The position numbers and the translations under genes were made by a program. From NCBI GenBank assembly GCA_042408215.1, contig JAYFMW010000007.1, positions 96,001 through 160,000 on the forward strand: a stretch of DNA of 64,000 nucleotides, written 5' to 3'. This stretch comes from Microcoleus sp. (GTDB lineage: Bacteria > Cyanobacteriota > Cyanobacteriia > Cyanobacteriales > Microcoleaceae). Below, piece by piece: positions 604-25,337 of the stretch (position 1 is the first letter of the stretch; every line of letters starts with the position of its first letter). The notes under the pieces are model-generated. The model worked only from the letters and a program-made list of their open reading frames with translations, had not been told where the DNA came from and did not search any database.

Positions 604-1401
604 ATGAATGCTGAAGAATTACTAAGACGATATGCTGATGGTGAAAGAGATTTTGCTGAGGTTGATTTGAGCGGTGTCGATTTGAACAAGGCAAATCTCC
701 TTGATATCAGTCTCGCCAATGCCAATCTGATTAATGCTAACTTTAGTTATGCTGACTTGATTAATGCTAACTTGAGTGGTGCTAACTTGAGCAATGCTAA
801 CTTGAATTGTATTGACTTGAACGACGCTAACTTGAGCAATGCTAACTTGAGCGAGGCTCACTTGGATGGTGCTCAGTTGATTAATGCTAATTTTAGTGGT
901 GCTAACTTGAGAGAAGCTTGGTTGGAAGGGGCTGACTTGAGTGGAGCCAATCTAAGTAATGCCTGCTTGGAAAATGCAACTTTGCACTATGCTGACGCGA
1001 CTGATGCCAACCTCAGTGGAGCTAATTTGAAAAATGGTTTTTTATCTAGGCTCAACTGTGAAAATACTAACCTCACTGGAGCCGACCTCAGCGATGCAGA
1101 CCTCGGTGAAGCTGGTTTTGACAAAGCAACTCTAATTGGCGCGAATCTAAGTAACACCAAGCTGCATCAAACAGGGTTTGAAAATTCCGATCTTACTGGA
1201 GCTAACTTTAGTGGTTCAATTATGGATGAAACATCGTTTGATGGTTCAAATCTCAGTCACGCTAATCTGATGGGAGTTCAGCCAGAACCTAGTCTGATGG
1301 CAAAGAAGGTTAGGCTTATGGGAAAAGGGTTTGAAGAAGCTATCTTATGTAAGACTATCATGCCTGATGGTAGCATCCGCAATGATAATTGTACAGCTTG
1401 A
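604..1401 (+). CDS. Pentapeptide repeat protein (subtype A), candidate immunity protein
   Basis: A(N/D)LxG repeats, MNAEELLRRY..GERDF N-cap, CKTIMPDG C-cap. Confidence 0.93.
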   Translation: MNAEELLRRYADGERDFAEVDLSGVDLNKANLLDISLANANLINANFSYADLINANLSGANLSNANLNCIDLNDANLSNANLSEAHLDGAQLINANFSGANLREAWLEGADLSGANLSNACLENATLHYADATDANLSGANLKNGFLSRLNCENTNLTGADLSDADLGEAGFDKATLIGANLSNTKLHQTGFENSDLTGANFSGSIMDETSFDGSNLSHANLMGVQPEPSLMAKKVRLMGKGFEEAILCKTIMPDGSIRNDNCTA

Positions 1402-1626
1402 TTAATGCTAAACATTACTGAAAACATATCTACCTTCCGTTTGAAAATTCATCATATTTCTGTTTCGACCCACGTCTGATAAATTAATATAAATCCGCGT
1501 TAAATATCCTCTTTATAATTAACCTCAGCAGCGGTAATATGAAGTTGAGGGCGATCGCATTGGAATAGCAAAACAAAGAATAATTGTACTATAATTCAGA
1601 AGTTAAAATAATTGACTAGATAATTT

Positions 1627-2427
1627 ATGAACGCTGAAGAATTGCTCGAACGGTATACCAGTGGAGAAAGACACTTTGCTGGGGTTGACTTGAGCGGTGT
1701 CGATTTGAACAAGGCAAAGCTCATTGATATCAATCTCGCCAATGCTATTTTGATTAATGCTAACTTGACGAGTACTCATTTGAGTGGTGCTGACTTGAGT
1801 GGTGCTAACTTGAGCGAGGCTAACTTGGATTGTATTCACTTGACCGAGGCTAACTTGACCGAGGCTAACTTGACCGAGGCTAACTTGGATGGCGCTGAGT
1901 TGATTAAGGCTAATTTTAGTGGTGCTAACTTGAAAGGAGCTTGGTTGGAAGGGGCTGACTTGACGGGAGCTAATCTAAGTAATGCCTGCTTAGAAAACGC
2001 AACTTTGCACTATGCTGACGTGACTGATGCCAACCTCAGTGGAGCTAATTTGAAAAATGGTTTTTTATCTCGGCTCCACTGTCAAAATACAAACCTCACT
2101 GGAGCCGACCTCAGCGATGCAGATGTCACTGAAGCTGGTTTTTATAAAGCAACTCTAATTGGCGCAAATCTGAGTAACACCCAGTTGCATCAAACAGGGT
2201 TTACTAATTCAGATCTTACTGGAGCAAACCTCAGTGGTGCGATTCTAGAGGAAACATCATTTGATGGTTCAAATCTGTGCAATGCTAATCTGATGGGAGC
2301 TAGAGGAGAGCCTGAATATGGCCCAAATACAACAATCAATCTTTGCGGAGAATGGGAAGACGCTACCTTGTGCAATACTGTCATGCCAGATGGAACGATC
2401 CGAAACGATAATTGCCCAGAGCGATAA
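1627..2427 (+). CDS. Pentapeptide repeat protein (subtype A)
   Basis: Pentapeptide repeats; tandem paralog 1023 bp after 604. Confidence 0.93.
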   Translation: MNAEELLERYTSGERHFAGVDLSGVDLNKAKLIDINLANAILINANLTSTHLSGADLSGANLSEANLDCIHLTEANLTEANLTEANLDGAELIKANFSGANLKGAWLEGADLTGANLSNACLENATLHYADVTDANLSGANLKNGFLSRLHCQNTNLTGADLSDADVTEAGFYKATLIGANLSNTQLHQTGFTNSDLTGANLSGAILEETSFDGSNLCNANLMGARGEPEYGPNTTINLCGEWEDATLCNTVMPDGTIRNDNCPER

Positions 2428-2649
2428 ATGCTAAACATTGCTGAAAACATATCTACCCTCCGTTTGAATATTTATCATATTTCTGTGTCGATAGGCGTCA
2501 GATAAATTAATACAAATCCGCGTTAAATATCCCCTTTATAATTAACCGCACCAGCGCGACTAGGAGGTTAACTGCGATCGGATAGGACTAGCAAAACATA
2601 GGATAATTGTACTATAATTCAAAAGTTAAAATAATTGACTAGATAATTT

Positions 2650-3447
2650 ATGAACGCTGAAGAATTGCTCGAACGGTATACCAGTGGAGAAAGACACTTT
2701 GCTGGGGTTGACTTGAGCGGTGTCGATTTGAACAAGGCAAAGCTCATTGATATCAATCTCGCCAATGCTATTTTGATTAATGCTAACTTGACGAGTACTC
2801 ATTTGAGTGGTGCTGACTTGAGTGGTGCTAACTTGAGCGAGGCTAACTTGGATTGTATTCACTTGACCGAGGCTAACTTGACCGAGGCTAACTTGACCGA
2901 GGCTAACTTGGATGGCGCTGAGTTGATTAAGGCTAATTTTAGTGGTGCTAACTTGAAAGGAGCTTGGTTACAAGGGGCTGACTTGACGGGAGCTAATCTA
3001 AGTAATGCCTGCTTAGAAAACGCAACTTTGCACTATGCTGACGTGACTGATGCCAACCTCAGTGGAGCTAATTTGAAAAATGGTTTTTTATCTCGGCTCA
3101 ACTGCCAAAATACAAACCTCACTGGAGCCGACCTCAGCGATGCAGACCTCGGTGAAGCTGGTTTTTATGAAGCGACTCTAATTGGCGCGAATCTAAGTAA
3201 TACCAAGTTGCATCAAACAGGGTTTTGGAATTCTAACCTAAGTAAAGCTAACTTTAGTGGTGCGATTATGGATGAAACATCATTTGATGGTTCAAATCTG
3301 TGCCACGCTAATCTGATGGGAGCTAGACCCGATCCTGAATATGACGACTCAAATATAATCAATCTTTGCGGAAAATGGGAAGACGCTACCTTGTGCAATA
3401 CTATCATGCCAGATGGAACGATCCGAAATGATAATTGTACAGCTTGA
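2650..3447 (+). CDS. Pentapeptide repeat protein (subtype A), convergent with cassette 3641
   Basis: Pentapeptide repeats; 1023 bp after 1627, with a nearly identical N-terminal half. Confidence 0.93.
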   Translation: MNAEELLERYTSGERHFAGVDLSGVDLNKAKLIDINLANAILINANLTSTHLSGADLSGANLSEANLDCIHLTEANLTEANLTEANLDGAELIKANFSGANLKGAWLQGADLTGANLSNACLENATLHYADVTDANLSGANLKNGFLSRLNCQNTNLTGADLSDADLGEAGFYEATLIGANLSNTKLHQTGFWNSNLSKANFSGAIMDETSFDGSNLCHANLMGARPDPEYDDSNIINLCGKWEDATLCNTIMPDGTIRNDNCTA

Positions 3448-3635: not shown

Positions 3636-3640
3636 ATTTA

Positions 3641-6600
3641 TTATTCCTCCTCAAGTTCCTCAGATTCACCCTCAAGCTCCTCAAGTTCCTCTTCCGGCTC
3701 TGTAGGGTCTTCGGGAAGTGGCGGTGGATTTGATTTCCAAGGAAGGCTAGCCCAAGTATCTCCAATAGATTCTTTACTGGGAAAGATGTATTTGATATCT
3801 TTGATATCTTGTTTTATTTCTTGAGGAAGAAGAGGGAATAGATCGTAGCCGATCTTGGTTTCTATTTCTTCAAGAGACCAGACAGGACGTTGAGTGAGAT
3901 CGTCAATCTTACTCCAATCCTTGTTTCTCCAGCCTTCGGCAATGTTACGGGGGTCTTGATTTGGATAATAAAAACCAACGGCATATACAGGAGTTGCGCT
4001 AGGGTCTGCACCCGGCTTATCCAAAACCACCATGACTTTCCATATATTTGCTGGAATTTGAATATCTTTACCGCCCGCATCCAAATTGTCCTTAATGCCA
4101 TCAATGCCATTAATGACATAGACTTCTTTACCGTTTAGCGCAAAATCTTGCCCGTAGTTTTCAAATTTCTCCCAAAAACTTACGCTATTATGTTTCGTCT
4201 GCTGTGGAACAATATTTGTTAGCAGATTGACAGCTTTACTGTCCTTGAGAGTAATACTGCGAGATGCCAGAGGTGTTTGATGACCTCCAACATAAGGAGC
4301 TCTATTTTTATAATCAGCGTTTGTCACTTGGTAAAAATCTGGTGGAAGGCTGCGATCGTTAGTGAAACCGCGCTTACTAGGATTTTGCTCTCCTGTCAAA
4401 TATATCGATGATTTATTGATCTGGAAACTCGCCCAGTTAGGTATATTTCCAGTACCGTTGTAAGACAGAGTATACTGCGGTTTTTCAAGCAGCAAGTTGT
4501 CTTTATAGAGATTCCCATCATAAGCAGCACCGCTATACCTTGCTGGACTGCTGCCATTCTTGGGTGTCGGTTCCCCAAATTTAAGAGAACTACTCTTGAA
4601 AAAGACATCATCTAAGTAAACCGCGTCGCTACCTTCCAATTCAAATTTGAGCGTCGCTGTTTTACCTCGGAACTTATCTAATTCTTTTTGTTGGGTTGAC
4701 CCTTGATAGAAAGTGTCAAATACATTAAAAGTTTCAAAACCTCTAGTCGCATATCCAAGTTTACGGGCAGCATCTTTTTCGAGATCGTTGTTGTAGAAAG
4801 AGTCTGATGTTCCTGTTAGAAAATTAGCTTCATCGAGAAGAATAATTTCAGTTATCTCTTCACCAGAAGCTACATCTTTTAGAGTAACTTTAAGCTTCCC
4901 ATGTCCATTAGCTGCTTCTTTGGGAACATGAATGTTGAACCGCAAAGACCCCCAATCTGGTACAACAAAGCGGTTGTGCGTCATGCTGTCACCACCCTTT
5001 AATTCCAGAGCATAGTTAGAGAAGTTAGGGTCATTACTATCAATACCCATCCTTTCTAGATAAGAGGTTCCAGGGATCTCATTGTTGTGTCGTAGGCTAC
5101 GTTGTTTGAGACTATCAATGGTACTCCAATTTACTAAATGCTTCGTGGGGTCTGCCAACTTTGATGTGGCACTATTGTGGAAAGACCACCCCGGAATTTC
5201 CTGAGAGATAGCATTCCGACCCAAATTTTCGGCAGCACTCTTATTAGGAATGTACTGGTCAAAATTCCCATTAAACAGAGTAGGAACCGCATAATCTCCC
5301 CGCATCCCAGCTTCAAGCGTATTATCAAAACTCACCGGAACGCGCCCAGTAGGGCTATACTGACGCTGCTCTTTACCTCCACCCAAAACAGAATAAAACC
5401 AACCCTCACCAACCCCTTCACCATTGCCATTATCATACCAAGGTTTAGCTGCCGGGAAATTCGGATCGAACATTTCGGGTAAACCCATTTTACCCAACAT
5501 ATCGTTAACTGCTTGAGGCTTCTCAGAAGCCTCCACATGAGGATACTGAAGTAAAACTTCCTCCAAGTCTAAATCAACTGTCCCCGCATACCATCCAAAT
5601 GCTCGCTTGTGCGTCCCTGCAATAACATCATCCTTAGTAAACCCAATCCGACTGTTTATCCGATCTGGTTCCTCCTCACGAGTACCGAGTAAAATCTCTC
5701 GGTCTGCCTTCCCTAAAGTAACACCCGACGCTTTAGGAAAATTCAGTCCAGCGGGTTTGGGATTCTTATCCAATTCCTCTTGTGGAAGTAGACCCAAAGC
5801 ACGACCATTAGGAGTAGCAGTACCACCATTCGGGTCAGCCACAGTTTGATAATAGTTATCAGCAAACGTAACATTATTCCAAACCTGAACCTTGGGTTCG
5901 TAGAAATCGCTGAAATTTGTTTCGATAAATTCCAGTAAATTTAATTTCAAACTAGGTTGGTAGAAATCGTGCGGGTCGATTGTTGTCATTTGGAGGTCTC
6001 GTGAGGCCATAGATTTGCCGCCCGCTTGGGGGAAAAAAGTCCCTAAACGCTGTACGATTTCGCTATTGACAACAGTACCCCGACTGAAACCCATGAAGTG
6101 CAGTGGCGAGTTGAACAAATCCCCCTGAGTGCGAATCAGGTTCCCTTGGCTGTCGTACAACCGCTTTAATTGATTGTTTTCATACTCTCCAACCTTACCC
6201 CCTAATGCCAGATCCAACTGCACCATAGAAGCAAACAAAGCATCAGCCGCGCCCTCAGAAAAGCCAACGTCAGGAATGACTGATTCTCTGTCCAACGACC
6301 ATTCATTCAGCAACACTAACGGTTTGTTATTGTTGAGGTATTTAATCTCCTTTCCATCTATAACCACACCTTTTTTTAACTTATTTGCCAAAGTTGATAA
6401 ATAAGCTGTTTCGCTGGTGTTAAGCCCGTCGGTCAACTCAGTTATTACCCGTCCCTGTAAATCTATAGGAATCCAGTTGCCTGTAGGCTTGTCGTAACGC
6501 ATAATTAACCCGCTGTTTTCCGGTGTATTGCCGCTAACAGTGGCAATTTTATTGGTCATTTGGAAAAAGGAATCAGGAATCCCAGACTGCACCGGCAAAA

Positions 6601-7091
6601 GTGTAAAACCATGAGTCAACACGCTCACGCTGCTGAAAGGACTGTTGCTAACAGGAAGTAAAGTTTTAAACTGCCCCAAATCTTTGGTCACAGCGCCGCT
6701 CTTACTCACAGCTTCAACAGCAAAATTGTAGTTCTGGCCCGCAGTAAGACTCCTCGGTAGCGTGAAGTTAGTGCTAGTATTTGCGGGGTCATTTAAAGGT
6801 TGGTCAAGAGGCGTAATCCCGTCGTGCCCGTACCACTTGCCAGTATCTTTCTTCCAAGTCGCCGTCAGAATCCGGTTGGGATTGAAGTCGTCATAACCGT
6901 TCCAAGGCTTGGAAAGAAGTTGACGCTTTTGTGTTTCCGAGAAGCCGGGAAGGAGTGCCGAATCTGATAAATCGACGACTTTATCCCAGGGCAATAAACC
7001 CTTGCCTTGCTCGAACGTACTGACAAAAAGATTGACCTCTTTCACATTCTCCCAACCAGGAGCAAACTGCCATTGAAAAGTAGGAGTCAGG
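3641..7091 (-). CDS. Orphan toxin C-terminal cassette: FN3-like, GxSxG hydrolase, NucA-like nuclease (VGGH) and acidic tail
   Basis: ORF 3641-7045; homology to the full-length gene continues upstream of the GTG to DLTPTFQW (about 7091); YVGGHQTP...TNIVPQ...N..FWEKFE. Confidence 0.85.
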
Positions 7092-7145
7092 TCAGAGGAT
7101 GATTGTACTATAATTCAGAAGTTAAACTAATTGAATAGATAATTT

Positions 7146-7964
7146 ATGAACGCTGAAGAATTGCTCCGACGGTATGCTGCTGGTGAGAGGAATTTTGCTG
7201 GGGTTGATTTGAGCGGTGTCGATTTGAACAAGGCAAATCTCCTTGAGATCAATCTCGCCAATGCCAATCTGATTAATGCTAACTTGAGTTATGCTGACTT
7301 GAGTGGTGCTGACTTGAGCAATGCTAACTCGATCAATGCTAACTTGCGTTGTATTGACTTGATTAATGCTAACTTGAGTAATGCTAACTTGAGCGAGGCT
7401 AACTTGGATGGCGCTCAGTTGATTAATGCTAATTTTAGTGGTGCTAACTTGAAAGGAGCTTGGTTGGAAGGGGCTGACTTGACTGGAGCTAATTTCAGTA
7501 ATGCCTGCTTAGAAAAAGCCAACTTAGGTCATACTGACTTAACTGATGCCAACCTCAGTGGAGTCAATTTAAAAAGTGGTTTTTTATCAGGAGTAAACTG
7601 TGAAAATACTAACCTCAACGGAGCCGATATCAGCGATGGAGATATCACTGAAGCCTACTTTGAAAAAGCGACTCTAATTGGCACGAATCTAAGTAATACC
7701 AAGTTGCATCAAACTGGGTTTTGGAATTCTGACCTAACTGGAGCTAATTTCAGCGGTGCAGTTCTCGATGAAACTTCGTTTGAAGGAGCCAATCTCAGCA
7801 ATGCTAATCTAAAGGGGGCTCAACCAGAACCTACTCTCCTCACACAGAGGATTAGGTTGATGGGGAAAGGGTTTGAAGAAGCTATCTTATGTAAGACTAT
7901 CATGCCTGATGGCAGTATCCGCAATGATAATTGTATGCCTGAACAATCCAATGAGCTAATATAA
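7146..7964 (+). CDS. Pentapeptide repeat protein (subtype A), convergent with cassette 8067
   Basis: Pentapeptide repeats; C-terminus like the 604 paralog (QPEP...RLMGKGFEEAILCKTIMPDG). Confidence 0.93.
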   Translation: MNAEELLRRYAAGERNFAGVDLSGVDLNKANLLEINLANANLINANLSYADLSGADLSNANSINANLRCIDLINANLSNANLSEANLDGAQLINANFSGANLKGAWLEGADLTGANFSNACLEKANLGHTDLTDANLSGVNLKSGFLSGVNCENTNLNGADISDGDITEAYFEKATLIGTNLSNTKLHQTGFWNSDLTGANFSGAVLDETSFEGANLSNANLKGAQPEPTLLTQRIRLMGKGFEEAILCKTIMPDGSIRNDNCMPEQSNELI

Positions 7965-8066: not shown

Positions 8067-11000
8067 TTATTCACTCTCAAGTTCCTCAGATTCCTCTTCT
8101 GGATCTGTAGGGTCTTCTGGAGGTGGCGGTGGATTTGATTTCCAAGGAAGGCTATCCCAAGTATCTCCAATAGATTTTTGCTTTGGAAAAATGTACTTGA
8201 TATCTTTGATATCTTTTTTGATTTCTTGAGGAAGAAGAGGGAATAGATCGTAGCCGATCTCGTTTTCTATTTCTTCCAAAGACCAGACAGGACGTTGAGT
8301 ACGATCGTCTATCTTACTCCAATCCTTATTTCTCCACTTTGTGGCAATCTTACCAGGGTCTTCATTTGGATAATAAAAACCAACGGCATAAACGGGAGTT
8401 GTGGTAGGATCTGCACCTGGTTTATCCAAAACCAGCATGACTTTCCACAAATTAGCAGGAATTTGAATAGTTTTACCATCGGCATCAAATCTATCCTTGA
8501 TTCCATGAATGCCATTAATGACATAAACTTCTTTACCTTCCTTGGCAAAATCTTGCCCGTAGTTTTCAAATTTCTCCCACAGTGGGCTGTTATTTTTAAT
8601 CTGTTGTGGAACGATATTAGTCATCAGATTGACAAATCTCTTGTCTTTTATCGTAATGCTGCGAGCTGCTAGAGGTGTTTGATGACCTTGAACGTAACCC
8701 AAGGGGACTGCGCTATCGTAATCATTACTACTTACCCGATTAAAATTGGGTGGAAGGCTTTTGTCTATAATAAAAGATCGCTCAGTAGGATTAGGCTCAC
8801 CTGGCAAATATATCGATGATTTATCGATCTGGAAACTAGCCCAGTTAGGTATGTTTCCAGTACCGTTGTAAGACAGAGTATACTGCGGTTTTTCAAGCAG
8901 CAAGTTGTCTTTATAGAGATTCCCATCATAAGCAGCACCGCTATACCTTGCTGGACTGCTGCCATTCTTGGGTGTCGGTTCCCCAAATTTAAGAGAACTA
9001 CTCTTGAAAAAGACATCATCTAAGTAAACCGCGTCGCTACCTTCCAATTCAAATTTGAGCGTCGCTGTTTTACCTCGGAACTTATCTAATTCTTTTTGTT
9101 GGGTTGACCCTTGATAGAAAGTGTCAAATACATTAAAAGTTTCAAAACCTCTAGTCGCATATCCAAGTTTACGGGCAGCATCTTTTTCGAGATCGTTGTT
9201 GTAGAAAGAGTCTGATGTTCCTGTTAGAAAATTAGCTTCATCGAGAAGAATAATTTCAGTTATCTCTTCACCAGAAGCTACATCTTTTAGAGTAACTTTA
9301 AGCTTCCCATGTCCATTAGCTGCTTCTTTGGGAACATGAATGTTGAACCGCAAAGACCCCCAATCTGGTACAACAAAGCGGTTGTGCGTCATGCTGTCAC
9401 CACCCTTTAATTCCAGAGCATAGTTAGAGAAGTTAGGGTCATTACTATCAATACCCATCCTTTCTAGATAAGAGGTTCCAGGGATCTCATTGTTGTGTCG
9501 TAGGCTACGTTGTTTGAGACTATCAATGGTACTCCAATTTACTAAATGCTTCGTGGGGTCTGCCAACTTTGATGTGGCACTATTGTGGAAAGACCACCCC
9601 GGAATTTCCTGAGAGATAGCATTCCGACCCAAATTTTCGGCAGCACTCTTATTAGGAATGTACTGGTCAAAATTCCCATTAAACAGAGTAGGAACCGCAT
9701 AATCTCCCCGCATCCCAGCTTCAAGCGTATTATCAAAACTCACCGGAACGCGCCCAGTAGGGCTATACTGACGTTGCTCTTTACCACCACCCAAAACAGA
9801 ATAAAACCAACCCTCACCAACCCCTTCACCATTGCCATTATCATACCAAGGTTTAGCAGCCGGGAAATTCGGATCGAACAATTCGGGTAAACCCATTTTA
9901 CCCAACATATCGTTAACTGCTTGAGGCTTCTCAGAAGCCTCCACATGAGGATACTGAAGTAAAACTTCCTCCAGGTCTAAATCAACCGTCCCAGCATACC
10001 ATCCAAATGCTCGCTTGTGCGTCCCTGCAATACTATCATCTTTCGTAAACCCAATCCGACTATTTATCCGATCTGGTTCCCCCTGACGAGTACCGAGTAA
10101 AATCTCTCGGTCTGCTTGCCCTAAAGTAACACCATTAACTGTCGGAAAATTCAGTCCCGCAGGTTTAGGATTCTTATCCAATTCCTCTTGTGGAAGTTGA
10201 CCCAAAGCACGACCGTTGGGAGTAGCAGTCAAACCATTAGGATTAGCCACAGTTTGATAATAGTTATCAGCAAACGTAACATTATTCCAAACCTGAACCT
10301 TTGGTTCGTAGAAATCGCTAAAATTTGTGCTGATAAAACCAGGTAATTGTAAATTCAAACTAGGTTGGTAGAAATCGTGCGGGTCGATTGTTGTCATCTG
10401 GAGGTCTCGGTTAGCCATAGATGTTCCACCAGCTTGGGGGAAGAAAGTTCCTAAACGCTGTACGATTTCGCTATTGACAACAGTACCCCGACTGAAACCC
10501 ATGAAGTGCATGGGCGAATTGAACAAATCCCCCTGCTGGCGAATCAGCTTCCCTTGGCTGTCGTACAACCGCTTTAATTGATTACCTTCATATTCTCCAA
10601 CCTTACCCCCTAATGCCAGATCCAATTGCACCATTGAGGCAAACAAAGCATCAGCAGCACCTTCGGAGAAGCCAACATCGGGAATAACTGACTCCCTATC
10701 CAGCGACCATTCATTCAGCAACACTAACGGTTTGTTCTTGTTGAGGTATTTAATCTCCTTTCCATCTATAACTACCCCGGCTTTTAACTTATTTGCCAAA
10801 GTTGATAAATAAGCTGTTTCGCTGGTGTTAAGCCCGTCGGTCAACTCAGTTATCACCCGTCCCTGTAAATCTATAGGAATCCAGTTACCTGTAGGCTTGT
10901 CGTAGCGCATAATTAACCCGCTGTTTTCAGGTGTGTTGCCGCTAACAGTGGCAATTTTATTTGCCATTTGGAAAAAGGAATCAGGAATCCCAGACTGCAC

Positions 11001-11836: not shown

Positions 11837-11858
11837 GTAGAGATTTAGGAGGAGAGTT

Positions 11859-13631: not shown

Positions 13632-13652
13632 ATAAGTTTTCTGTATTAAAAG

Positions 13653-13682
13653 TAGCGAGGAAGAATTGATTCGCCCTCGCTA
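13653..13682. terminator. Possible hairpin terminator between a convergent pair
   Basis: tagcgagg...cctcgcta inverted repeat. Confidence 0.45.
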
Positions 13683-13721
13683 GTTAAGCAATTATTGCCA
13701 AGTGTTAGCTACTACCAAAAC

Positions 13722-16539: not shown

Positions 16540-16821
16540 ATTACTCGTTGCGATCCACGAAGAAATGAGGAGAAGGGAGAGAGAGGATTCATGCTTCAAA
16601 AAATGACTAGCCTTTCTAGTTGATTAGTTAACTCAATAGTTCTCACGTAAAGTTCACTAATACTCGTCATCTTTTTAGTTATTTCTAAGGAAGATTAATT
16701 GAAATTAATTCCTCAGTATTCAAAAGTGCAAATTAAATGCAGACAACTAGCATCAGACATTGGCAAAGTCTTGCTATATTGATAGTATAAACTGATATTC
16801 TAAATAGAGGGAGGGAAAAAC

Positions 16822-17310: not shown

Positions 17311-17484
17311 CCTAAATCATTTGTGCAATAGCGTGTAATAGTAATGCTTGCTGAAGCAGCTTTTCCGATATTTTTGCTTTGCACAACTCATTTAGGTTCG
17401 CTATAGTTCAATCTCATTAAAACCCAAGAGCCTGATAAGCCAAGTCAGCTTGACAGCAGGCTACTTTGTTTGTTGTCTAGATCA

Positions 17485-20400
17485 TCAGCCTCCTGATTCG
17501 ATTATTTCCTCAATCTCATCAGGAATATTTGAGAAGAAGTCAAGCCCAGTCAAAGCCTCGATTTCGTTAACAGTCAGCTTCCATGTTTGCCAATTTCTCC
17601 AAGCAGCTTTGTTTGGTATATCTGGACGACTTAACCCCAACAAAGCATTGAATGGGTGAGGAACTGATAGCGCAAAATCTCCATTATTACCTACTGTGCC
17701 ATTTGGATTAGCTGGTACGTGATCTGGTTCAACCTCGTTGGGTGTTAAAATGCCGTAAGTTGCAGCGTTAGCAATTGTGACACCAGCAGGAGTCAGTCCT
17801 GGTTGCTCTAAATCCAGTACAACCTTCCAAGTCCAACCAGGAATATTAATTCCTTTATTTATAAGAATTTGGGGATTTGTTAATGTGGTAGGTTCCGAGT
17901 AATGACTGAAACGCTGCGGATCGGGATTGCTGCCATAACCCCCAGCCACAACATAAAGCTCTTTTGGGGTCTCAGTAATTGGATCGCTCTTAGTAATCTT
18001 TTTAAGAAAATCGTCAAAACTTGTCCATACTGCACGATCTGGGATTTCTCCAGTAAACACCTCATTGTTATCAAAATGCTGTGGAATTACATTTGTCAAC
18101 AGAAAAGTAGCTATGTTGTCTTTTTCGCTATTAGTTCGGTGATCCGAAGGTAGCAGATGCCCCTTTCGATATTCACTGCCAACGTAGTCTTCATTTACGA
18201 TCCGACCCCAGCTTTCAGGAATACTTTGATCTTCAATAAAGTTGATTTTTGAACGAGGAGTTTCATCCAGCCACTTTTGATTCATTTGCCAACTTACCCA
18301 TTTAGGAGTTTTACTGCTGTCATTGTAAGCAGTCGCAAACTGTGCTTTCTCTAGCAAATAGTTATTGCTATCCGCAACATTAAGGTTAGTTGTATTCCTC
18401 GCATCTGAGGGATTTCCAAACAGTAGATGTTGACTTTTGAAGAATACATTATCTAAGTAAACAGTACCGCCACCAACAACTTCAAACTTGAGGGTTGCTA
18501 CTTGACCACGCAAATTGTCAGGTACCTCAAATTGGAAAGTCTCAAACCCTTGAATTCCATAATCAATCTTTTGAGTGTCTGCTAAGTAAGAACCTCGTGT
18601 GCGATTTGCTCGCGTCAAGTTGACCGATGATGAAACGCCTAAAGGACTTCCATCTGCTGCTTCTAAAGTGACCAAAACACTTCTTCCCGAACCCAGTTCT
18701 GCTTCTGGAACATGGAGGTCAAACCGTAAATTTCCCCAATCAGGTACAACAAAACGGTTGTGAGTAATACTTTTACCTGATTCTAGCTTCAGAGCATAAT
18801 TTTGTTGAGTGCGATCGACTCCAATTCTATCGAGTTCTGCGTGCAAAGCCGGAGCATCACTTGCAGATAGCTGATTCACATCAACGAGATTATTTGTAGA
18901 CACACTAGCCGATGTTTCATCATTATGAAAAGACCAGCCCGGAATCGCATCAGAAATCGCATTTCGGAACAAACTACCCGGATTAAAAACAGCATCAAAA
19001 TTGCCACCAAAAAGAGTAGGAACCGCAAAATCACCCCGCATCCGCCTTTCCGCTGTATTGTCAAAAGAAAGAGGCACGCGCTCCAGAGTATTAGTCGGTC
19101 GCAAATTAGTAATCGCACCCGTATTGGGATCTTTAGTCAAACCACCTCCAAGAACAGAATAGAACCAACCAGTACCAATACCCTCATTGGGAGCATTAGC
19201 AGCACCCAGAGAAAAGTTAGGTTGCCCGCTATATTTAGGCGTGTACCAGGGGTTGACACGAGGGTCTTGAGGACTTCCACTGAAAGAAAAGTCTCTGTCA
19301 AACAGTTGCTCGTAATGCCCATCACCCCGACGCCGCGAGATCGGGTCAACAGGTTGCGTACTAGAAGAATTTTGGCGATACTCAGTTAGTCCCAGGTCAG
19401 CAGTCCCCGCATACCACGTCAGGACTCGCCCGTGCGGCCCCCCAGCGAGATCGTCTTTCGTAAACCCCGGCAAACTATTTTCATAACCATCAGCATTGCG
19501 TCGAGTACCCAAGAAAACCGTTTCGTCAGGTTTCCCTAGAAGTTCCCCCGCACTGTTTCTGGGAAATTTGAGACCTGCTCTAATCTCTGTTCGCAGAGCA
19601 TCGGGCCCGCTCAAATTGGGAATGTCTCGACCCGCAGGTGTCAGCGTAGGAATTTGTGGAATGCCTTGGTCTAGCCTGGGTACCGTTTGGTAGTAGTTGT
19701 CGGCAAAAGTCACATTCTTCCAAACCTGAACCTTCGGTTCGCGGAAATCTGCAAATCCCGCTTCTCCTAGAAATGGTAACTGTACCGAAAAACTTGGTTG
19801 GTCAAAATCATGGGGATCTAATGTAGTCATCTGGAGGTCGCGAAACAGAGAATTCTCCTTCCCGCCAGCTAGAGGGAAGTAAGTCCCTACACGCTGAATC
19901 ATTTCGCTATTGACCACAGCCCCCCGACTGAAGCCAACAAAGTGCAGTGGCGAATTGAAAATTGCCCCCTGAGAGCGAACAAAATTCCCTTGGCTGTCGA
20001 ACTTAGCACCACCTCCGAGCGACTGATCTAGCTGCACTAGCGAAGCAAAGAAACTATCTGCTGCTCCCTCCGTGAAGCCAGAATCGGGAATAGCTGACTC
20101 ATTATTTTGAGACCAGTCAGGCAGAAGCACTAATGGTTTGTTGGCTTGGAGGTAGGGAGCTATATAGCTCGACAAAGCAGTACGATAACTGGGAGCGGCT
20201 TGGTCAAAACCATTAGGAAAATAAGTTGAATTACTAAAGAAATCACCCAAGACTTGCCCGTATTTATCGACCGGAACCCAGTTACCTGTGGGCGAGTCGT
20301 AGCGCATGAGCAATCCTTCACCCCCAGTAGTAGCAATGCTGTCAGCCATTTTGTAGAATTCGCTGGGAATCCCTGGTCCGGTAATGACCGGAGGCTTAAA

Positions 20401-23400
20401 ACCGTGGGTCAGTACAGTGACGCTGCTGAAAGTGCTGTTGCCGTTGAGAGCAGGCGGTGGCGATGTTTTGAACTGCCCAACATCGAGATTTCGCTTTCCA
20501 TCCTTGCTCAAAGCTTCAACAGCCCAATGATAAGTCTGACCAGCCGTCAGAGTCCGATTATCGGGCAGTGTGAACTGGGTATTGGTGTTTGAAGGGTCAA
20601 GGGGTAGACCACCAAGCCCCACCCAGCCTTGACCGGGCTTCCAAGTCGCTGTCAGGATGCGGTTGGGGTTGTAGTCATAAGTACCGAACTGGGAGTTCCA
20701 TTTTGCTAACAAGTTTTGCTGCTGCTGTGGGCTGAGATTATTGAAGTTTGGATTTTGGATATTGGCGAGATCCTCCCACCTATCCTCTGGCAACAAACCC
20801 TCCCCTTTATCGAAGGTACTGACAAAAAGATTAACCTCTTTCACATCCTCCCAACCCGGAGCAAACTGCCATTGAAAAGTCGGAGTCAGGTCATTTGTAG
20901 TTGCACCAGGCCCCTTCAAATTCAGCCAGTCAGTCGGTGCAGAACTCAAATCCCGTAAATTGCCTCCAGTACCGACTGGTGCGCGTGTTGTCTGCGGCAG
21001 CACCCCATAAGTAAACTGATTAGCAGGTCGATTCTCCTGAAGAATCCCATAGTCAGCAGCAATACTAATAGCCGGATTTATATCATCAATAGGAACCCTT
21101 GTGAAATCAGCCGCAGTCACAGACTTCGCCGTAGTAGCATTGAAGAAAGGAGACTTAACACCCCTGTCAAGGCTGTCAATTTGGAATTGACCAGGATTGT
21201 CCAGGGTTTTGATGATCTCCTCGACATTAAAGGTATAAACCCCCCCAGCACTACCAGGAGCCGGGTAAGAAGAAAATAGGGATTTATTGTCATTCGATAG
21301 TACCAAATCGTTCGTCAGCCCCCCAGGAATCGGTCTGGTAGCAGCTACTAATTGAGGATTCGGTCCCAAGGGGTCTTTGATAATACCAATGTTGCTCCCA
21401 GAGCGCGGATCCGCATAGGGGTTGACATAATTTCTATAATTGCGACCCGCAACGAACGCATATCGCCCGTCACGCATTACCGTTACAGAAACTCCCTCGT
21501 TGACATCAAAGTAATCGTTGGCAAAACCCAACCCTAAAGGAATATAGCGGACAGCGGTAGCAAAATTGAGGGGGTCATCAGACGTAATTTCCAGCACGCC
21601 AAAGCCCTTGCTGTCATCCTGAAGGGGTAGAAAATCGGTTTGTATGCTAGCCAATCCGTTGGTGAAAACCATTTTTCGGGGGTCAGCGGTAGCTGCTATC
21701 CCCTCTGTCTCTGAAGCGGTGGCAATTACTCCAATCTGCTGGTGCCACTTCCGCTCGTTAGAACCCTCAGCGATCGGTTTGTCGCGAGGGTCAATGTTGA
21801 CCGCATAAATGCTACGGTTGCGTACTCGTTCATTATCGTCGGAACCCGTAGCGAAGAGCTTGCGCCCGTCGCTGCTGATGGCCAACTGGCTCAGTCCCAG
21901 TGGCGATGTAACGTTAATGGTTTGAACAACAGTGTGATAGGTTGCTGAGAAGGGGTCGATGTCGAGGACGTAGATGTTGGGCCGATCGCGATCGGCAATG
22001 TAAGCATAATTATCCTTGGGGTCGATCGCGATCGACTTAGGTTTAGCCCCCGCTGGTAGAACAATAGGATTGACACCCGGAGTATTGGGCTGGGTGTCCA
22101 CTTGTCGCAGTACCATCGGATCGACCATCGCGACGCCGCCTGATTCCCTTAAGACTACATAAACCCTCGTGCCGTCGCTAGTCACAGCGCTCGCTTCTGC
22201 GGCATCAGTAGACTTGTCGCCTACGGGGATTCTGGAAATTAACAAGTCCTTGCTTCTGGTAGCTTCTACCACTGCTTTTGGATTAGAACCCTGAATAACT
22301 ACCAGTTCGCTCAAACTTTTGGGGTTGATTGGGGGGAAGTTCTGGGTTGCAAAAACGTACTCTGCCCCCTGTGGCAGACGTATTGGATTGCTGCTGTACT
22401 CAATAGGTTTATACACCGGTGCCGTGCCGTTTTGCTCGACCAACTGATTTTGCTTCCTGGTCAAAACTATGCCGGATGCACCCAGGGGTAAGGTGTTGGG
22501 AACTTGTACGGCAACTTCAAACTGGTTGCCCCCAACAGAACGGCTGCGGTTGGGCAATATCGTTCCAGGGTACACCTGATTCCCGACCTGAAATTCCACA
22601 ACCAAGTCCTCAAACCGACTGCCTTTAGAGTCGCTGGCATTGTTGACCAGAATGTTGCCCCCCGTTAGGAAAAGAAGTGGTTCGCCTTTCTCAAATTGCT
22701 GGTTGTTCTCATCCTTGAATTTCAATTCAGCTTTTTGGAGGACAGGAGGTGTTGTGGGGTCAGAGGTGGTTGGGGCTGGCATATTCAAAGCTGCCTTAAA
22801 TGTGGCGGTGCCGTCGTCGTTTCGCTGGACACCCACCTCTGTGACGACGGGAAGTCCCACCTTGGGGATTGCTACCACCTGCACTGAAGATATGTCGCGA
22901 GTTACGGTAAAGGCTGGAGTGGTAACGAATTTGTCCGGGTCGATTAACTGACCGATATTTCCCAGGGGGTCAATGATGCCAAAAAATGCTAGGGGGAAGT
23001 TGTAGTTGAGGGTAAGCTGACCTTTGACTAAGGTGGCGCTGCCTGTCGGACTGGCGTAGACTACTGCGTATTCGCCTGGTCTGACCACGCCTGGATAGGG
23101 AGGAGACTGGGTGCGAATGTTGCCGTCATCTCCGACTATGCCTGATTCTTCTTGCAGCCAAATCGGATTCCAAGTGCCGATTGCGTCAGGAATTGCTCCT
23201 TTTCGCAGGAAGTATGCCACAGTTCCTGGTGCTAATCCGGCTGGTGCTGGTATTGCTAACTGGGCGGGTATATTCAGGGAGTTATCGCTAAAGTTTAAGT
23301 TGAAGGCTCCTGCAAATTCAAATCCCGGTGGTAGTGGTAGGGACAAGTTTTGTTGGTTGACTGGGGCAATGCTGACGGTTGCATTCTGTTTGAGAGCGCC

Positions 23401-24483
23401 CGGAGGTATCATGACTGCTAGGGTTCCGTCGCTTGAGTTGATGATGCCACCGTCGGTTCCCAAGGCTGTTGTGCCGATTTTCGGTGCTTCGACTCGAACT
23501 GGAATGGTGGCGGATGCGGTTCCGTGAATGGCTGTGACGGTGGCATCGCCAATGCCGACTGCTGTAATGGTGCCGTCGGGACTGACGTTGAGGATGTTGC
23601 TGTTGTTGCTAAAGTAGCGCGTACCTGTGCTGGCTGCGGTTAAGTTGGCTTCGGTGAAGTTGGAGTTTAAGCTGAGGGAGAGTTTCCGCGTTGCGCCAAC
23701 AGATAGGGAGACGGCATCTGGGTAGGGGTCTAGTCCGTACATTTCGGCTAGTATCTGATGCAGTTGAGCGTCTGTTGTGGGTGCTGGCATCGTCCCAATT
23801 CGGATTGGGGTGACTGCTTGTAGGTTATTTCGACTTGCGCTCAAAACTGAAGTACCGTTGGTTAAACCTGTCACTTTCCCCGTTGGATCAATTGGTGCTA
23901 CTTCTGGATTTATTGAAGTGTAAGTTAGATAAGAATCTGGGAGCACTACACCTTTTTGGTCGGCAAAATCTCCGAGCACAATCAATTCCGTATTTTCTCC
24001 TGCATTGAGGCTCGGATTTCGCTTCACAAAATCTAGATTCAGCAGGGGAACATCGCTGACATTGACTGTCACGCGCGCGGGCGTTGAACTCCCAAAAGCG
24101 TCGCTGGCAAGGAAATCAAAGCTGGCAATTCCAGAGAAGCCGATTGCTGGTTTAAACGATGCTTTGTTCGTTAAGGGATTGAAAATTACAGTACCGTTTA
24201 CTGGACCCTGGACGCTAATTGTGAGAGGGTCGCCCTCTGCATCTGTGGCAAGATTGTCTAATGAAATAGTTGTCTCTAATTCTGTATAAGTCCGAGTGCT
24301 TGTCGGTGAAACAACGGGCGGATTGTTGTCAGAATTCGGGGGATTGGCTTCGGCGAGCAATTGTTGTCCTAAGGTCGTATTGCGCCATTCTTTGTCAGGG
24401 TTGATGACTGTATCTAGCAGCGGTGCGTTTCCTGTTGCGCCACTAATTTTAAAGATTAGGTCATTGTAATCTCTGTCTGAGTT
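17485..24483 (-). CDS. Long orphan toxin cassette: Ig/cadherin-like, ZU5-like, beta-propeller, GxSxG hydrolase, NucA-like nuclease (RKGH)
   Basis: ORF 17485-24360; homology continues upstream (NSDRDYNDLIFKISG) to about 24483 with no ATG before the stop at 24547-24549; YRKGHLLPSDHR...ATFLLTNVIPQ. Confidence 0.87.
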   Translation of the reverse strand, partial: NSDRDYNDLIFKISGATGNAPLLDTVINPDKEWRNTTLGQQLLAEANPPNSDNNPPVVSPTSTRTYTELETTISLDNLATDAEGDPLTISVQGPVNGTVIFNPLTNKASFKPAIGFSGIASFDFLASDAFGSSTPARVTVNVSDVPLLNLDFVKRNPSLNAGENTELIVLGDFADQKGVVLPDSYLTYTSINPEVAPIDPTGKVTGLTNGTSVLSASRNNLQAVTPIRIGTMPAPTTDAQLHQILAEMYGLDPYPDAVSLSVGATRKLSLSLNSNFTEANLTAASTGTRYFSNNSNILNVSPDGTITAVGIGDATVTAIHGTASATIPVRVEAPKIGTTALGTDGGIINSSDGTLAVMIPPGALKQNATVSIAPVNQQNLSLPLPPGFEFAGAFNLNFSDNSLNIPAQLAIPAPAGLAPGTVAYFLRKGAIPDAIGTWNPIWLQEESGIVGDDGNIRTQSPPYPGVVRPGEYAVVYASPTGSATLVKGQLTLNYNFPLAFFGIIDPLGNIGQLIDPDKFVTTPAFTVTRDISSVQVVAIPKVGLPVVTEVGVQRNDDGTATFKAALNMPAPTTSDPTTPPVLQKAELKFKDENNQQFEKGEPLLFLTGGNILVNNASDSKGSRFEDLVVEFQVGNQVYPGTILPNRSRSVGGNQFEVAVQVPNTLPLGASGIVLTRKQNQLVEQNGTAPVYKPIEYSSNPIRLPQGAEYVFATQNFPPINPKSLSELVVIQGSNPKAVVEATRSKDLLISRIPVGDKSTDAAEASAVTSDGTRVYVVLRESGGVAMVDPMVLRQVDTQPNTPGVNPIVLPAGAKPKSIAIDPKDNYAYIADRDRPNIYVLDIDPFSATYHTVVQTINVTSPLGLSQLAISSDGRKLFATGSDDNERVRNRSIYAVNIDPRDKPIAEGSNERKWHQQIGVIATASETEGIAATADPRKMVFTNGLASIQTDFLPLQDDSKGFGVLEITSDDPLNFATAVRYIPLGLGFANDYFDVNEGVSVTVMRDGRYAFVAGRNYRNYVNPYADPRSGSNIGIIKDPLGPNPQLVAATRPIPGGLTNDLVLSNDNKSLFSSYPAPGSAGGVYTFNVEEIIKTLDNPGQFQIDSLDRGVKSPFFNATTAKSVTAADFTRVPIDDINPAISIAADYGILQENRPANQFTYGVLPQTTRAPVGTGGNLRDLSSAPTDWLNLKGPGATTNDLTPTFQWQFAPGWEDVKEVNLFVSTFDKGEGLLPEDRWEDLANIQNPNFNNLSPQQQQNLLAKWNSQFGTYDYNPNRILTATWKPGQGWVGLGGLPLDPSNTNTQFTLPDNRTLTAGQTYHWAVEALSKDGKRNLDVGQFKTSPPPALNGNSTFSSVTVLTHGFKPPVITGPGIPSEFYKMADSIATTGGEGLLMRYDSPTGNWVPVDKYGQVLGDFFSNSTYFPNGFDQAAPSYRTALSSYIAPYLQANKPLVLLPDWSQNNESAIPDSGFTEGAADSFFASLVQLDQSLGGGAKFDSQGNFVRSQGAIFNSPLHFVGFSRGAVVNSEMIQRVGTYFPLAGGKENSLFRDLQMTTLDPHDFDQPSFSVQLPFLGEAGFADFREPKVQVWKNVTFADNYYQTVPRLDQGIPQIPTLTPAGRDIPNLSGPDALRTEIRAGLKFPRNSAGELLGKPDETVFLGTRRNADGYENSLPGFTKDDLAGGPHGRVLTWYAGTADLGLTEYRQNSSSTQPVDPISRRRGDGHYEQLFDRDFSFSGSPQDPRVNPWYTPKYSGQPNFSLGAANAPNEGIGTGWFYSVLGGGLTKDPNTGAITNLRPTNTLERVPLSFDNTAERRMRGDFAVPTLFGGNFDAVFNPGSLFRNAISDAIPGWSFHNDETSASVSTNNLVDVNQLSASDAPALHAELDRIGVDRTQQNYALKLESGKSITHNRFVVPDWGNLRFDLHVPEAELGSGRSVLVTLEAADGSPLGVSSSVNLTRANRTRGSYLADTQKIDYGIQGFETFQFEVPDNLRGQVATLKFEVVGGGTVYLDNVFFKSQHLLFGNPSDARNTTNLNVADSNNYLLEKAQFATAYNDSSKTPKWVSWQMNQKWLDETPRSKINFIEDQSIPESWGRIVNEDYVGSEYRKGHLLPSDHRTNSEKDNIATFLLTNVIPQHFDNNEVFTGEIPDRAVWTSFDDFLKKITKSDPITETPKELYVVAGGYGSNPDPQRFSHYSEPTTLTNPQILINKGINIPGWTWKVVLDLEQPGLTPAGVTIANAATYGILTPNEVEPDHVPANPNGTVGNNGDFALSVPHPFNALLGLSRPDIPNKAAWRNWQTWKLTVNEIEALTGLDFFSNIPDEIEEIIESGG

Positions 24484-24614
24484 CGCTGATGATGCGGGTG
24501 ATTGAGAAATGCTTGTAATTGCAGTAGTATTTGAATAAAAATAGTTTTAAACATACAAATACTCTTACCTGGGATTCTGGTTATTATTGTAAATAAATTC
24601 TAGGAGACAAAGTT

Positions 24615-25337
24615 ATGGAGAGAATAGATGCAGAAGAACTACTCAGACGGTACGCGGCTGGAGAAAGAGACTTTGCAGGCCTTGACCTAAGTGGAATTCT
24701 TTTGGGTAGACGTTACGCTGACGAGTTAATCAGGCGGTATCAAAGTGAAGAAAACACTCGAATTGGTGGAGTCAACCTGCGCGGTATAAATCTGAGTGGC
24801 GCTAATCTTGAAAAGGCTAACCTGGAAGCTGTTGATTTTATGGGAGCCAATTTGAGTGGAGCTAACTTGACTCGAGCTATATTGCAGGTGGCGAGGCTCA
24901 ATGAAGCTAACCTGAGCGGAGCTAACCTCAGAGAAGTTATCCTTAGCTCGGCTCGACTGCATCAAACTAACTTGAGTGGGGCTATTTTGGAAAGAGCAAT
25001 ATCCTATGATGCCGAATTCATAGGGACGATTCTGAAGCGAGCAAAGCTCAGGGGGGCTGGTTTGGAAACTTCTCGCTTTACTGGCGTTGACTTTACCAGT
25101 GCTGACTTAAGAGAGGTAGGTATGGGACCAGCTACCATTGAGCAATGCAACTTTACCAAAGCCAATTGGAATCGAGGGTGTATTCAACGGTGTACGTTTA
25201 TCGATTGCGATTTTACCAAGGCTAGCTTTAGCAAAGCCGGTGCAATAGAATCGAATTTTATTCGGTGTAATTTTACAGATACTAAATTGGAGAAAATGAA
25301 AATTTTTGATGCCTCTACAACAGATTCTATTTTTTAA
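24615..25337 (+). CDS. Pentapeptide repeat protein, convergent with the full-length toxin gene
   Basis: IDAEELLRRYAAGERDF cap, N-terminal insertion, pentapeptide repeats, RBS taggag. Confidence 0.92.
   Translation: MERIDAEELLRRYAAGERDFAGLDLSGILLGRRYADELIRRYQSEENTRIGGVNLRGINLSGANLEKANLEAVDFMGANLSGANLTRAILQVARLNEANLSGANLREVILSSARLHQTNLSGAILERAISYDAEFIGTILKRAKLRGAGLETSRFTGVDFTSADLREVGMGPATIEQCNFTKANWNRGCIQRCTFIDCDFTKASFSKAGAIESNFIRCNFTDTKLEKMKIFDASTTDSIF

Follow-up and report, generated by a model that had tools for sequence, protein, structure and literature searches.

Nuclease and pentapeptide-repeat genes at the locus

In a stretch of 64,000 nt from the cyanobacterium Microcoleus sp. (assembly GCA_042408215.1, contig JAYFMW010000007.1, positions 96,001–160,000; hereafter the window), we analysed a locus in which genes for large proteins ending in a NucA-type nuclease domain stand opposite genes for pentapeptide-repeat proteins (PRPs), together with related loci from other genomes. 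On scanning the open reading frames (ORFs) of the window (n=32) against Pfam, five ORFs on the − strand were found to carry a C-terminal Endonuclease_NS domain (PF01223, E-values 1e-28 to 2e-34; 99–120 bits against a cut-off of 23), referred to here as the tip, and ten ORFs on the + strand within 604–35003 were identified as PRPs (PF00805, E-values 6e-23 to 1e-69; 81–230 bits against a cut-off of 20.2). The stop codon of every tip faces the stop codon of a PRP gene, and as only 81–193 nt lie between the two, a third gene cannot fit in between. The case for a functional link between tips and PRPs, set out below, is strong, and the PRPs are probably the cognate inhibitors of the nucleases that they face.

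The largest nuclease gene (25419–35003, −; Pfam, alignment and self-blastn), hereafter the main gene, encodes a full-length giant putative toxin of 3194 amino acids (aa), which consists in order of a Pro/Thr-rich repetitive N-terminal region, DUF4114, Big_9 and Big_2 domains, ~1800 aa without Pfam annotation and the tip. Its pre-toxin motif reads ...VYIDNAFFKS..GNP, and its NucA-type nuclease domain occupies about 25422–26369. Within the N-terminal region, at least nine tandem 48-nt repeats (33957–34532) specify a 16-aa Pro/Thr/Lys-rich unit (…PTDKLEPNKTVPATVS…), and at the called GTG start no signal peptide was evident.

Each of the other four nuclease genes proved by self-blastn to be a 5'-truncated copy of this gene. 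The longest of them (17485–24360, −, 2291 aa; Pfam and self-blastn) matches the main gene at 86.5% nucleotide identity (20781–24483 against 28658–32300) and bears a different nuclease tip at 17488–18426. The shortest (13722–15287, −, 521 aa; Pfam and alignment) is an orphan comprising the pre-toxin region and a nuclease tip (13725–14564). The remaining two are an orphan copy of 1181 aa (8067–11612, −; tip at 8070–8942) with an acidic C-terminal tail, and an orphan copy of 1134 aa (3641–7045, −; tip at 3644–4516) that is a tandem duplicate of the 8067 unit, both assigned by Pfam and self-blastn; 5155–7094 aligns with 26873–28770 of the main gene at 86% nucleotide identity. In these last two copies, which carry what we term subtype-A tips, the nuclease domain is followed by a tail, Pro-rich at first and strongly acidic thereafter (3641–3760 and 8067–8170; …PEEELEELEGESEELEEE), that is absent from the other tips.

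The tip of the 521-aa orphan aligns end to end (residues 1–264) with Anabaena NucA (PDB 1ZM8/2O3B; E-value 4e-40), and this alignment begins exactly at S-x-HL-x-GNP, right after the motif VYLDDVFFK of the upstream portion of the protein (the scaffold). In an alignment of the five window tips, G164/H165, N187, P190/Q191, N196 and W201 were invariant; across 35 tips, G102/H103 and Q129 were invariant and N125 was at least 90% conserved. We take the His of the (D)RGH motif to be catalytic and the Asn of TN..PQ to bind the metal. To judge from the conserved catalytic columns, and from ratios of non-synonymous to synonymous substitution (dN/dS) of 0.06–0.5 in the orphans, the tips look active.

The pentapeptide-repeat proteins

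All ten PRP genes lie on the + strand and were assigned by Pfam. Three tandem subtype-A genes (604–1401, 1627–2427 and 2650–3447) repeat with a period of 1023 nt by self-blastn, the last being convergent with tip 3641 across 193 nt; PRPs 604 and 1627 belong to this subtype at 72–91% identity. Another subtype-A gene (7146–7964) is convergent with tip 8067 (gap of 102 nt). Subtype B is represented by 12951–13631 (start at 12936 or 12951; also modelled with AlphaFold2), convergent with tip 13722 (gap of 90 nt), and by 16822–17310, which carries the ANLNVA...PGQN loop and is convergent with tip 17485 (gap of 174 nt). The tip of the main gene is met by PRP 24615–25337 (gap of 81 nt). The first-pass annotation had set this PRP apart as a third type, and it is indeed only 37–43% identical to the other window PRPs and lacks the C-terminal T-x-x-P-D-G hairpin motif.

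The three other PRP genes do not face a tip directly. The product of a double-module gene (11859–12800, 313 aa) aligns over all of its 313 aa, at 73% identity, with a PRP of locus L031 that comes first behind a tip of another type; the gene is a candidate immunity gene whose cognate tip is not in this locus. Copies of PRPs 15398–15985 and 16060–16539 with 95–99% identity stand second and third in the PRP array of the relatives L002 and L003, making these two candidate extra or orphan immunity genes. Matches elsewhere were also found for two of the facing PRPs: in L048, L062 and L064 the first PRP behind a tip of the corresponding type is an orthologue of 16822 (73–77% identity), and in L070 a PRP 87% identical to 24615 accompanies a tip with a bit-score ratio of 0.92 to that of the main gene. 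Several array PRPs match PRPs that come first after other tip types elsewhere, which resembles the poly-immunity arrays of other toxin systems.

The nuclease-adjacent PRPs have an N-terminal ELLxRYAxGERxF segment in common and most end in T-(I/L)-(M/L)-P-D-G; in an alignment of 46 PRP sequences, L6, R9, Y10, G13, E14, R15, F17, P216 and G218 were at least 90% conserved. Within the Microcoleus genome, 10 of the 12 PRPs with both motif patterns are tip-adjacent. The label given to these proteins by NCBIfam, 'Alr5209 family', stems from the common N-terminal 95 aa, and in the available text of the Alr5209 paper a link to nucleases is not reported. No signal peptide was visible in any of the PRP sequences. 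An AlphaFold2 model of PRP 12951–13628 (predicted local distance difference test 95.1, predicted template-modelling score 0.90) is a canonical right-handed quadrilateral β-helix, predicted to comprise an N-terminal capping helix and a regular β-helix, from which the subtype-B insertion loops out at about residues 27–42, with the PDG motif forming the turn of a C-terminal β-hairpin. Searched with Foldseek, the model returned PRP structures as its top matches (E-value ∼1e-14), with Np275/276-derived solenoids and HetL first and Qnr, AlbG and MfpA ranking after them. We also considered bulk charge as a pointer to DNA mimicry and set it aside: the PRPs are acidic (median isoelectric point 4.56), but so are the tips (4.96).

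Contigs from RNA libraries (X1, X2, X3 and X7, the last three environmental) that derive from relatives (90–99% identity) cover 11847–15300 and so span PRPs 11859 and 12936 together with orphan 13722. They hint at expression without proving it; as transcription, strand and level are not deducible from contigs, we give them no weight.

PRP genes adjoin C-terminal nuclease tips across genomes

In order to place the window in a wider context, one genome per species was scanned with the alignment of the five window tips, which yielded 79 loci, all of them cyanobacterial or from unclassified metagenome-assembled genomes. The loci were classed by the position of the nuclease match within its ORF (42 C-terminal, 27 internal and 9 stand-alone), and adjacency was scored wherever at least 700 nt of downstream sequence was present, a PRP being counted if its ORF began within 1500 nt. 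By this measure every C-terminal tip was accompanied by a PRP (39/39), at a median gap of about 130 nt. A PRP is also present in L052, which offers only 662 nt of room, and in L019 a frameshifted tip is followed at 102 nt by a PRP that passed PF00805; in L035 and L040 the sequence ends 0–1 nt past the tip. PF00805 is passed by every first PRP of this class (n=40). Of these, 33 are convergent with the tip on the opposite strand and seven are co-directional, so that the adjacency survives inversion. Many genera are represented among these tips, whose identity to the reference tip is only 29–85%.

Similar results were obtained from metagenome contigs scanned with the pre-toxin region, where 33 loci were found. 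Here a PRP within 1500 nt accompanied each C-terminal tip that had 700 nt or more of downstream sequence (23/23); one of these loci (L107) contains four tandem tip-plus-PRP units. The 7.36-Mb Microcoleus genome itself contains 58 PRP-like ORFs and seven nuclease matches; five of these are in the window, contig C29 adds one more complete tip, and contig C8 has a fragment. A PRP stands 11–193 nt from each of the six complete tips and from the fragment, against a chance expectation of about 0.012 PRP starts in 1.5 kb. Of the 58 PRP-like ORFs, 14 have a tip within 2.3 kb. A separate profile search for the scaffold, in which six candidates were scored per genome, detected it in at least 16 of 401 genomes; this is a lower bound, because the search missed the copy of the scaffold in the Microcoleus genome that carries an ADP-ribosyltransferase (ART) tip.

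Four of the co-directional PRPs (L028, L039, L046 and L052) are short, at 165–179 aa, and lie 19–32 nt past the tip. Variation among them is greatest in a loop that directly follows the N-terminal GERNFAG segment and coincides in position with the subtype-B ANLNVA...PGQN insertion; this loop is a possible second specificity element.

The partner gene follows the position and type of the tip

The same search supplied natural negative controls. In 27 loci the nuclease domain is internal and is followed by 400–2600 aa of PKD, Big_9, Calx-beta and cadherin domains; here a PRP was found downstream in only 1 of the 17 loci with enough room (L042). Proteins of this sister architecture (L006, L015, L017, L037, L069, L073 and others) range from 2400 to >5700 aa with the NucA domain mid-protein, and two are encoded on Calothrix plasmids. 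Stand-alone NucA lipoproteins of ∼270 aa had a PRP in none of nine cases, and in six of the nine (L043, L051, L058, L059, L065 and L079) a NuiA gene (130–136 aa; PF07924, E-values 1e-35 to 4e-50) lies downstream on the opposite strand; L072, L075 and L078 have neither NuiA nor PRP. With the NuiA hidden Markov model only these six stand-alone loci gave a match, and no tip locus, no internal locus and no part of the window did, in agreement with the first-pass annotation, which had recognised no NuiA-like gene here. In the 99.98%-complete Microcoleus genome a search for PF07924 also returned 0 matches, although the control genomes of that search were likewise silent. NuiA for stand-alone NucA and PRPs for C-terminal tips are thus alternative partners.

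Additionally, the adjacent gene changes when the scaffold bears another kind of tip. On contig C8 (L082:6428–10447, −) a 1339-aa protein has a scaffold that is 41–46% identical to those of 17485 and 25419 over about 1180 aa; it shares the pre-toxin region, and past ...VYLDDISFGK its C-terminus is formed by an ADP-ribosyltransferase domain (ART-PolyVal, PF18760). The next gene downstream is no PRP but an ORF with an OGFr_N domain (L082:5229–5768), and it is only at a greater distance, beside the orphan nuclease-domain fragment, that two PRPs are met. The ART tip was also found in genome G056 (L099) and in six metagenome loci (L130–L135); immediately behind it, in L130, L131, L134 and L135, come one or two CxxC ORFs of about 70–80 aa on the same strand. 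In none of the ART-tip loci, whether in the Microcoleus genome, G056 or the six metagenome loci, does a PRP stand directly next to the tip, and the OGFr_N ORF and the CxxC ORFs are candidate ART immunity genes. The partner gene therefore follows the tip type and not the scaffold, and a small adjacent gene that switches with the toxin type is the pattern expected of cognate immunity genes.

An adjacency restricted to C-terminal tips would also be explained if the PRPs were tip-specific accessory factors, such as chaperones or export adaptors holding the nuclease domain in an unfolded state or passing it to a secretion apparatus, in the manner of the DUF2169 and PRP proteins of some type VI secretion system (T6SS) effector loci. 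PRPs do adjoin His-Me-finger GH-E toxins in T6SS regions, where the available text assigns them no immunity role (PMC5714182), and a T6SS accessory role for DUF2169 and PRPs is cited in the reference lists of papers. We nevertheless regard this explanation as improbable. Neither DUF2169 nor any T6SS component was detected by Pfam among the 32 window ORFs, and an adaptor would not be expected in arrays of 2–6 divergent copies, nor beside 5'-truncated orphans or nuclease fragments. Furthermore, the known inhibitor NuiA is downstream of and convergent with stand-alone NucA, which is the placement of most PRPs.

Co-variation and exchange of nuclease domains and PRP halves

The first-pass annotation had drawn its case from co-variation of PRP subtype with nuclease cassette within the window. 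Its description of the first pair holds, as the near-identical cassettes 3641 and 8067 (92% identity over about 1100 aa; tips 79% identical in the last 300 aa) face the subtype-A PRPs 2650 and 7146, which are 71% identical. This pair is, however, one tandem duplication of the whole PRP-plus-orphan unit by self-blastn (3664–7094 against 8069–11502, 92% nucleotide identity; for the PRP part, 2597–3439 against 7093–7935, 81%), and therefore a single event rather than independent co-variation. The second pair was borne out for the PRPs and failed for the nucleases: between PRPs 12936 and 16822 there is 64% identity over 136 aa, and both have the ANLNVA...PGQN insertion, but the tips 13722 and 17485 are not related. 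Their nuclease domains are 31–32% identical, with 13722 nearer to 25419 (37%), and their bit-score ratio of 0.24 compares with a background median of 0.23. In these units the flanks alone are similar, namely the 5' part of the PRP gene (12952–13162 against 16823–17033, 86% nucleotide identity) and, by self-blastn, the pre-toxin flank (15073–15331 against 18926–19184, 94%). As evidence, co-variation within the window is weak, and taken alone it amounts to no more than duplication would give.

For a broader comparison, bit-score-ratio matrices were compared by Mantel test for 37 tip–PRP pairs, or 27 pairs after removal of near-duplicates. The tip correlated with the whole PRP at r = 0.27 (p = 0.002; 37 pairs), falling to 0.16 (p = 0.07) on de-duplication, and with the 250 aa of scaffold just upstream at r = 0.50. 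Only on dividing the PRP did the comparison become informative: in the set of 27 pairs, the tip correlated with its C-terminal half (r = 0.36, p = 0.0003; partial on scaffold 0.34) and not with its N-terminal half (r = 0.02), whilst the scaffold correlated with the N-terminal half (r = 0.30, p = 0.007; partial on tip 0.34) and not significantly with the C-terminal half (r = 0.15). The subtype-B pair follows the same division, with ratios of 0.74 for the N-terminal half, 0.21 for the C-terminal half and 0.24 for the tip. Between 3641 and 8067 the synonymous divergence (dS) is 0 in scaffold codons 601–800 and 0.87 in the nuclease domain, and between the PRPs of these units it is 0.29 in the N-terminal half and 0.72 in the C-terminal half. 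Cassette swaps were also observed in other genomes: against L030, loci L011 and L013 have scaffold ratios of 0.93–0.95, tip ratios of 0.46–0.49 and PRP ratios of 0.30–0.31. From the half-wise co-variation, the dS values and these swaps, it follows that the unit of exchange is the nuclease domain together with the 3' half of the PRP gene next to it, with the pre-toxin region and the PRP 5' half apparently acting as recombination flanks.

These patterns bear on two further explanations. The PRPs might protect the cell without binding the nuclease, through substrate shielding or competition (by coating DNA-handling proteins), through an action on gyrase of the Qnr/MfpA kind or through mitigation of damage. 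Such a role would suit their acidity (median isoelectric point 4.56), and DNA mimicry towards gyrase is the only well-established PRP mechanism according to the available text of a review (PMC8145042). A generic protector, however, needs neither tip-linked variable C-terminal halves nor arrays, shielding gyrase is no answer to a non-specific nuclease, and the Qnr and MfpA models of NCBIfam score far below their cut-offs with these proteins; we hold protection of this kind to be very unlikely. The PRPs might also be merely co-inherited neighbours, their adjacency and in-window co-variation having arisen by duplication and shared ancestry of one type of locus in cyanobacteria, which are rich in PRPs, with no functional interaction. 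The segmental duplication behind the subtype-A pair, the inflation of counts by related genomes and a tip/whole-PRP correlation no higher than that between tip and scaffold are all in keeping with this. Yet the adjacency is complete (39/39 and 23/23) across many genera and tips only 29–85% identical to the reference, it persists through inversion in the seven co-directional cases, it is lost with an ART tip on the same scaffold or with an internal or stand-alone nuclease, and only about 0.012 PRPs per 1.5 kb would be expected from their background density. Mere co-inheritance is in our view the least probable of the explanations considered, and inhibition of each tip by its PRP remains the one that we favour.

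Proposed mechanism and points against it

As C-terminal tips are almost always flanked by PRP genes, these genes probably encode protective inhibitors. We consider it reasonably likely that the loci constitute a polymorphic-toxin-like family in which PRPs replace NuiA as the cognate nuclease inhibitors. A long, conserved and probably exported scaffold would end at VYLDDVFFKS-HL-GNP and be followed by an exchangeable C-terminal toxin, usually a NucA-type, presumably Mg-dependent and non-specific nuclease, which the scaffold would deliver. The facing PRP would be a cytoplasmic inhibitor (immunity protein) that binds and neutralises its cognate nuclease, and would so take over the role of NuiA. 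Specificity may lie mainly in the C-terminal half of the PRP β-helix, swapped together with the nuclease domain, with the N-terminal half and the pre-toxin region serving as conserved recombination flanks. The 5'-truncated orphans downstream would store alternative tips as a reservoir of toxin–immunity pairs, and surplus PRPs of the arrays may protect against the tips of neighbouring strains.

The first-pass annotation had gone on to propose that the PRPs block the substrate cleft of their cognate nucleases. Their standing as functional partners of the tips is strongly supported by comparative genomics, through the adjacency, the negative controls, the dependence on tip type and the co-variation of the C-terminal half. 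For the cleft itself, a DNA mimic is plausible as the mechanism by analogy with the gyrase-directed PRPs and EndoGI. A still more specific proposal is that the PRP subfamily defined by the N-terminal ELLxRYAxGERxF helix, and usually by the C-terminal T-x-x-P-D-G hairpin, forms a novel, modular class of DNA-mimic immunity proteins, whose acidic β-helix would sit in the cleft of the NucA tip, whose C-terminal coils would set specificity and be swapped with the nuclease by recombination, and which would engage about a quarter of the PRPs of the genome (14/58) in interstrain nuclease warfare via an unrecognised export route. We regard this extended version as doubtful.

A number of points weigh against the PRPs as cognate inhibitors. 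Support for binding and inhibition by the PRPs is indirect. Loci from related genomes share ancestry and are not independent, because of which the counts overstate the number of independent events. The correlation of tips with whole PRPs is not stronger than that with the scaffold, and subtype-B PRPs with similar N-terminal halves face unrelated tips. In convergent loci contiguity alone would give co-variation of the tip with the C-terminal half, and the pattern is therefore compatible with co-adaptation rather than proof of it; the co-directional clade (L028, L039, L046 and L052), in which the C-terminal half is the more conserved, speaks neither for nor against it. By the Nei–Gojobori method dN/dS was nowhere above 1, with values of 0.06–0.61 for 3641 against 8067 and for the subtype-A PRP paralogues, in windows and halves, and so gave no gross sign of positive selection. 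Most PRP genes are convergent with the toxin gene instead of sharing a transcript with it, an unusual arrangement for immunity genes. The internal-domain proteins have no PRP (except 1/17) and no NuiA in the sequence fetched, from which it follows that an inhibitor is not obligatory for the nuclease domain; this suggests that the inhibitor would not serve simply to protect the producer before export, and is in keeping with a role against incoming tips. Finally, Pfam found no known export or delivery domain on the scaffold, and interbacterial delivery is therefore an assumption. Across 11 scaffolds the only matches were DUF4114, Big_9, Big_2, cadherin-like and weak β-propeller domains, with no RHS, filamentous-haemagglutinin (FilH/TPS), PAAR, LXG/WXG, MafB or other trafficking domain, and there was no clear signal peptide at the called starts of the scaffold proteins.

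Comparison with known systems

The closest counterpart is NucA/NuiA of Anabaena sp. PCC 7120, a secreted sugar-non-specific nuclease with a cytoplasmic inhibitor. The tip is a close NucA homologue with the catalytic residues kept, and in both systems a small partner gene lies just downstream, 33 of the 40 PRPs being convergent as NuiA is. The partner here, however, is a pentapeptide-repeat β-helix and not the α/β fold of NuiA; it occurs in variable arrays, and the nuclease tips a protein of 1000–3000 aa rather than constituting a 270-aa lipoprotein. The family of NucA-type nucleases is inhibited by the unrelated proteins NuiA and EndoGI, and carboxylates of EndoGI mimic or overlay DNA phosphates, as described in the available text of PMC2790893.

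Polymorphic toxins (Tox-NucA, and CdiA-CT/CdiI and Rhs with their orphan arrays) resemble the present loci in having a conserved scaffold, a sharp pre-toxin motif and an exchangeable tip (here, scaffolds 86–92% identical in nucleotides with tips 26–37% identical in amino acids), as well as a tip-specific small gene adjacent and 5'-truncated toxin-plus-partner modules downstream. They differ in that the partner here is mostly on the opposite strand and the scaffold has no trafficking domain recognised by Pfam. The available text of Zhang et al. 2012 (PMC3482391; 300,000 characters) gives Imm-SUKH and Imm36 as the immunity proteins for Tox-NucA and does not once use the word 'pentapeptide'. What is new here is the class of partner protein, the mostly convergent arrangement and a scaffold without a recognised trafficking domain; the polymorphic-toxin logic is known.

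With MfpA, Qnr and AlbG the window PRPs share their acidity and the proposed logic, in which a PRP would occupy the nucleic-acid-binding surface of a DNA-cutting enzyme. They are unlike them in sequence, scoring at best 21–74 bits against NCBIfam cut-offs of 240–500 for MfpA and Qnr, in their closest structures, which are cyanobacterial (Np275/276-derived solenoids and HetL), and in their proposed target, a ββα-Me nuclease and not gyrase, towards which PRPs mimic DNA (PMC8145042, available text). Another parallel is offered by the YjbI-like PRPs whose genes directly adjoin GH-E toxins, also His-Me-finger nucleases, although GH-E differs from Endonuclease_NS and the phyla and delivery system are different; in the available text of Jablonska et al. 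2017 (PMC5714182) an annotated immunity gene was not found at these loci, and an inhibitor role for the PRP is not proposed. The available text of the 2021 PRP review (PMC8145042) mentions no nuclease-inhibitor or immunity role either. A full-text literature search, outside of which lay subscription journals and supplements, returned no report tying PRPs to inhibition of, or immunity against, NucA/Endonuclease_NS nucleases.

Other genes of the window and genome

Upstream of the main gene the window contains a HerA-like ATPase (35472–37208, −; HAS-barrel and DUF87), just beyond its 5' end, and a 479-aa PRP (37770–39209, −). The ATPase was considered as a conserved secretion partner and rejected, as no homologue occurs in any fetched flank, few of which extend upstream of a full-length gene. 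Further along, an ORF for a STAND-type nucleoside triphosphatase (51864–53138, −) with weak NB-ARC, NACHT and AAA_16 matches sits in the stretch of lowest G+C content in the window (0.345); it is unrelated to the toxin locus. Elsewhere in the genome, contig C30 carries two tandem PRP genes with a C-terminal RidA/L-PSP domain (PF01042; L080:15033–16304 and 16724–17947, +), situated downstream of a CheA-like hybrid kinase and unconnected with nucleases.

Significance

Cyanobacterial genomes encode dozens of PRPs each, the biochemical function of which is largely unknown according to the available text of two reviews (PMC8145042, PMC7337050). For a defined PRP subfamily we can now offer a specific and inexpensively testable hypothesis, namely that each member inhibits the neighbouring NucA-type tip, and genomic support for it is unusually clean because the search that revealed the adjacency also supplied natural negative controls. 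Moreover, the joint exchange of a nuclease domain and half of its partner gene provides an informative case of recombination of toxin–immunity cassettes. If the hypothesis is true, nuclease inhibitors and immunity proteins would gain a new fold, and the 'mimicry' of PRPs would extend beyond gyrase; it would define a polymorphic-toxin family in filamentous, mat-forming cyanobacteria, and it would give a job to part of a large PRP family of unknown function.

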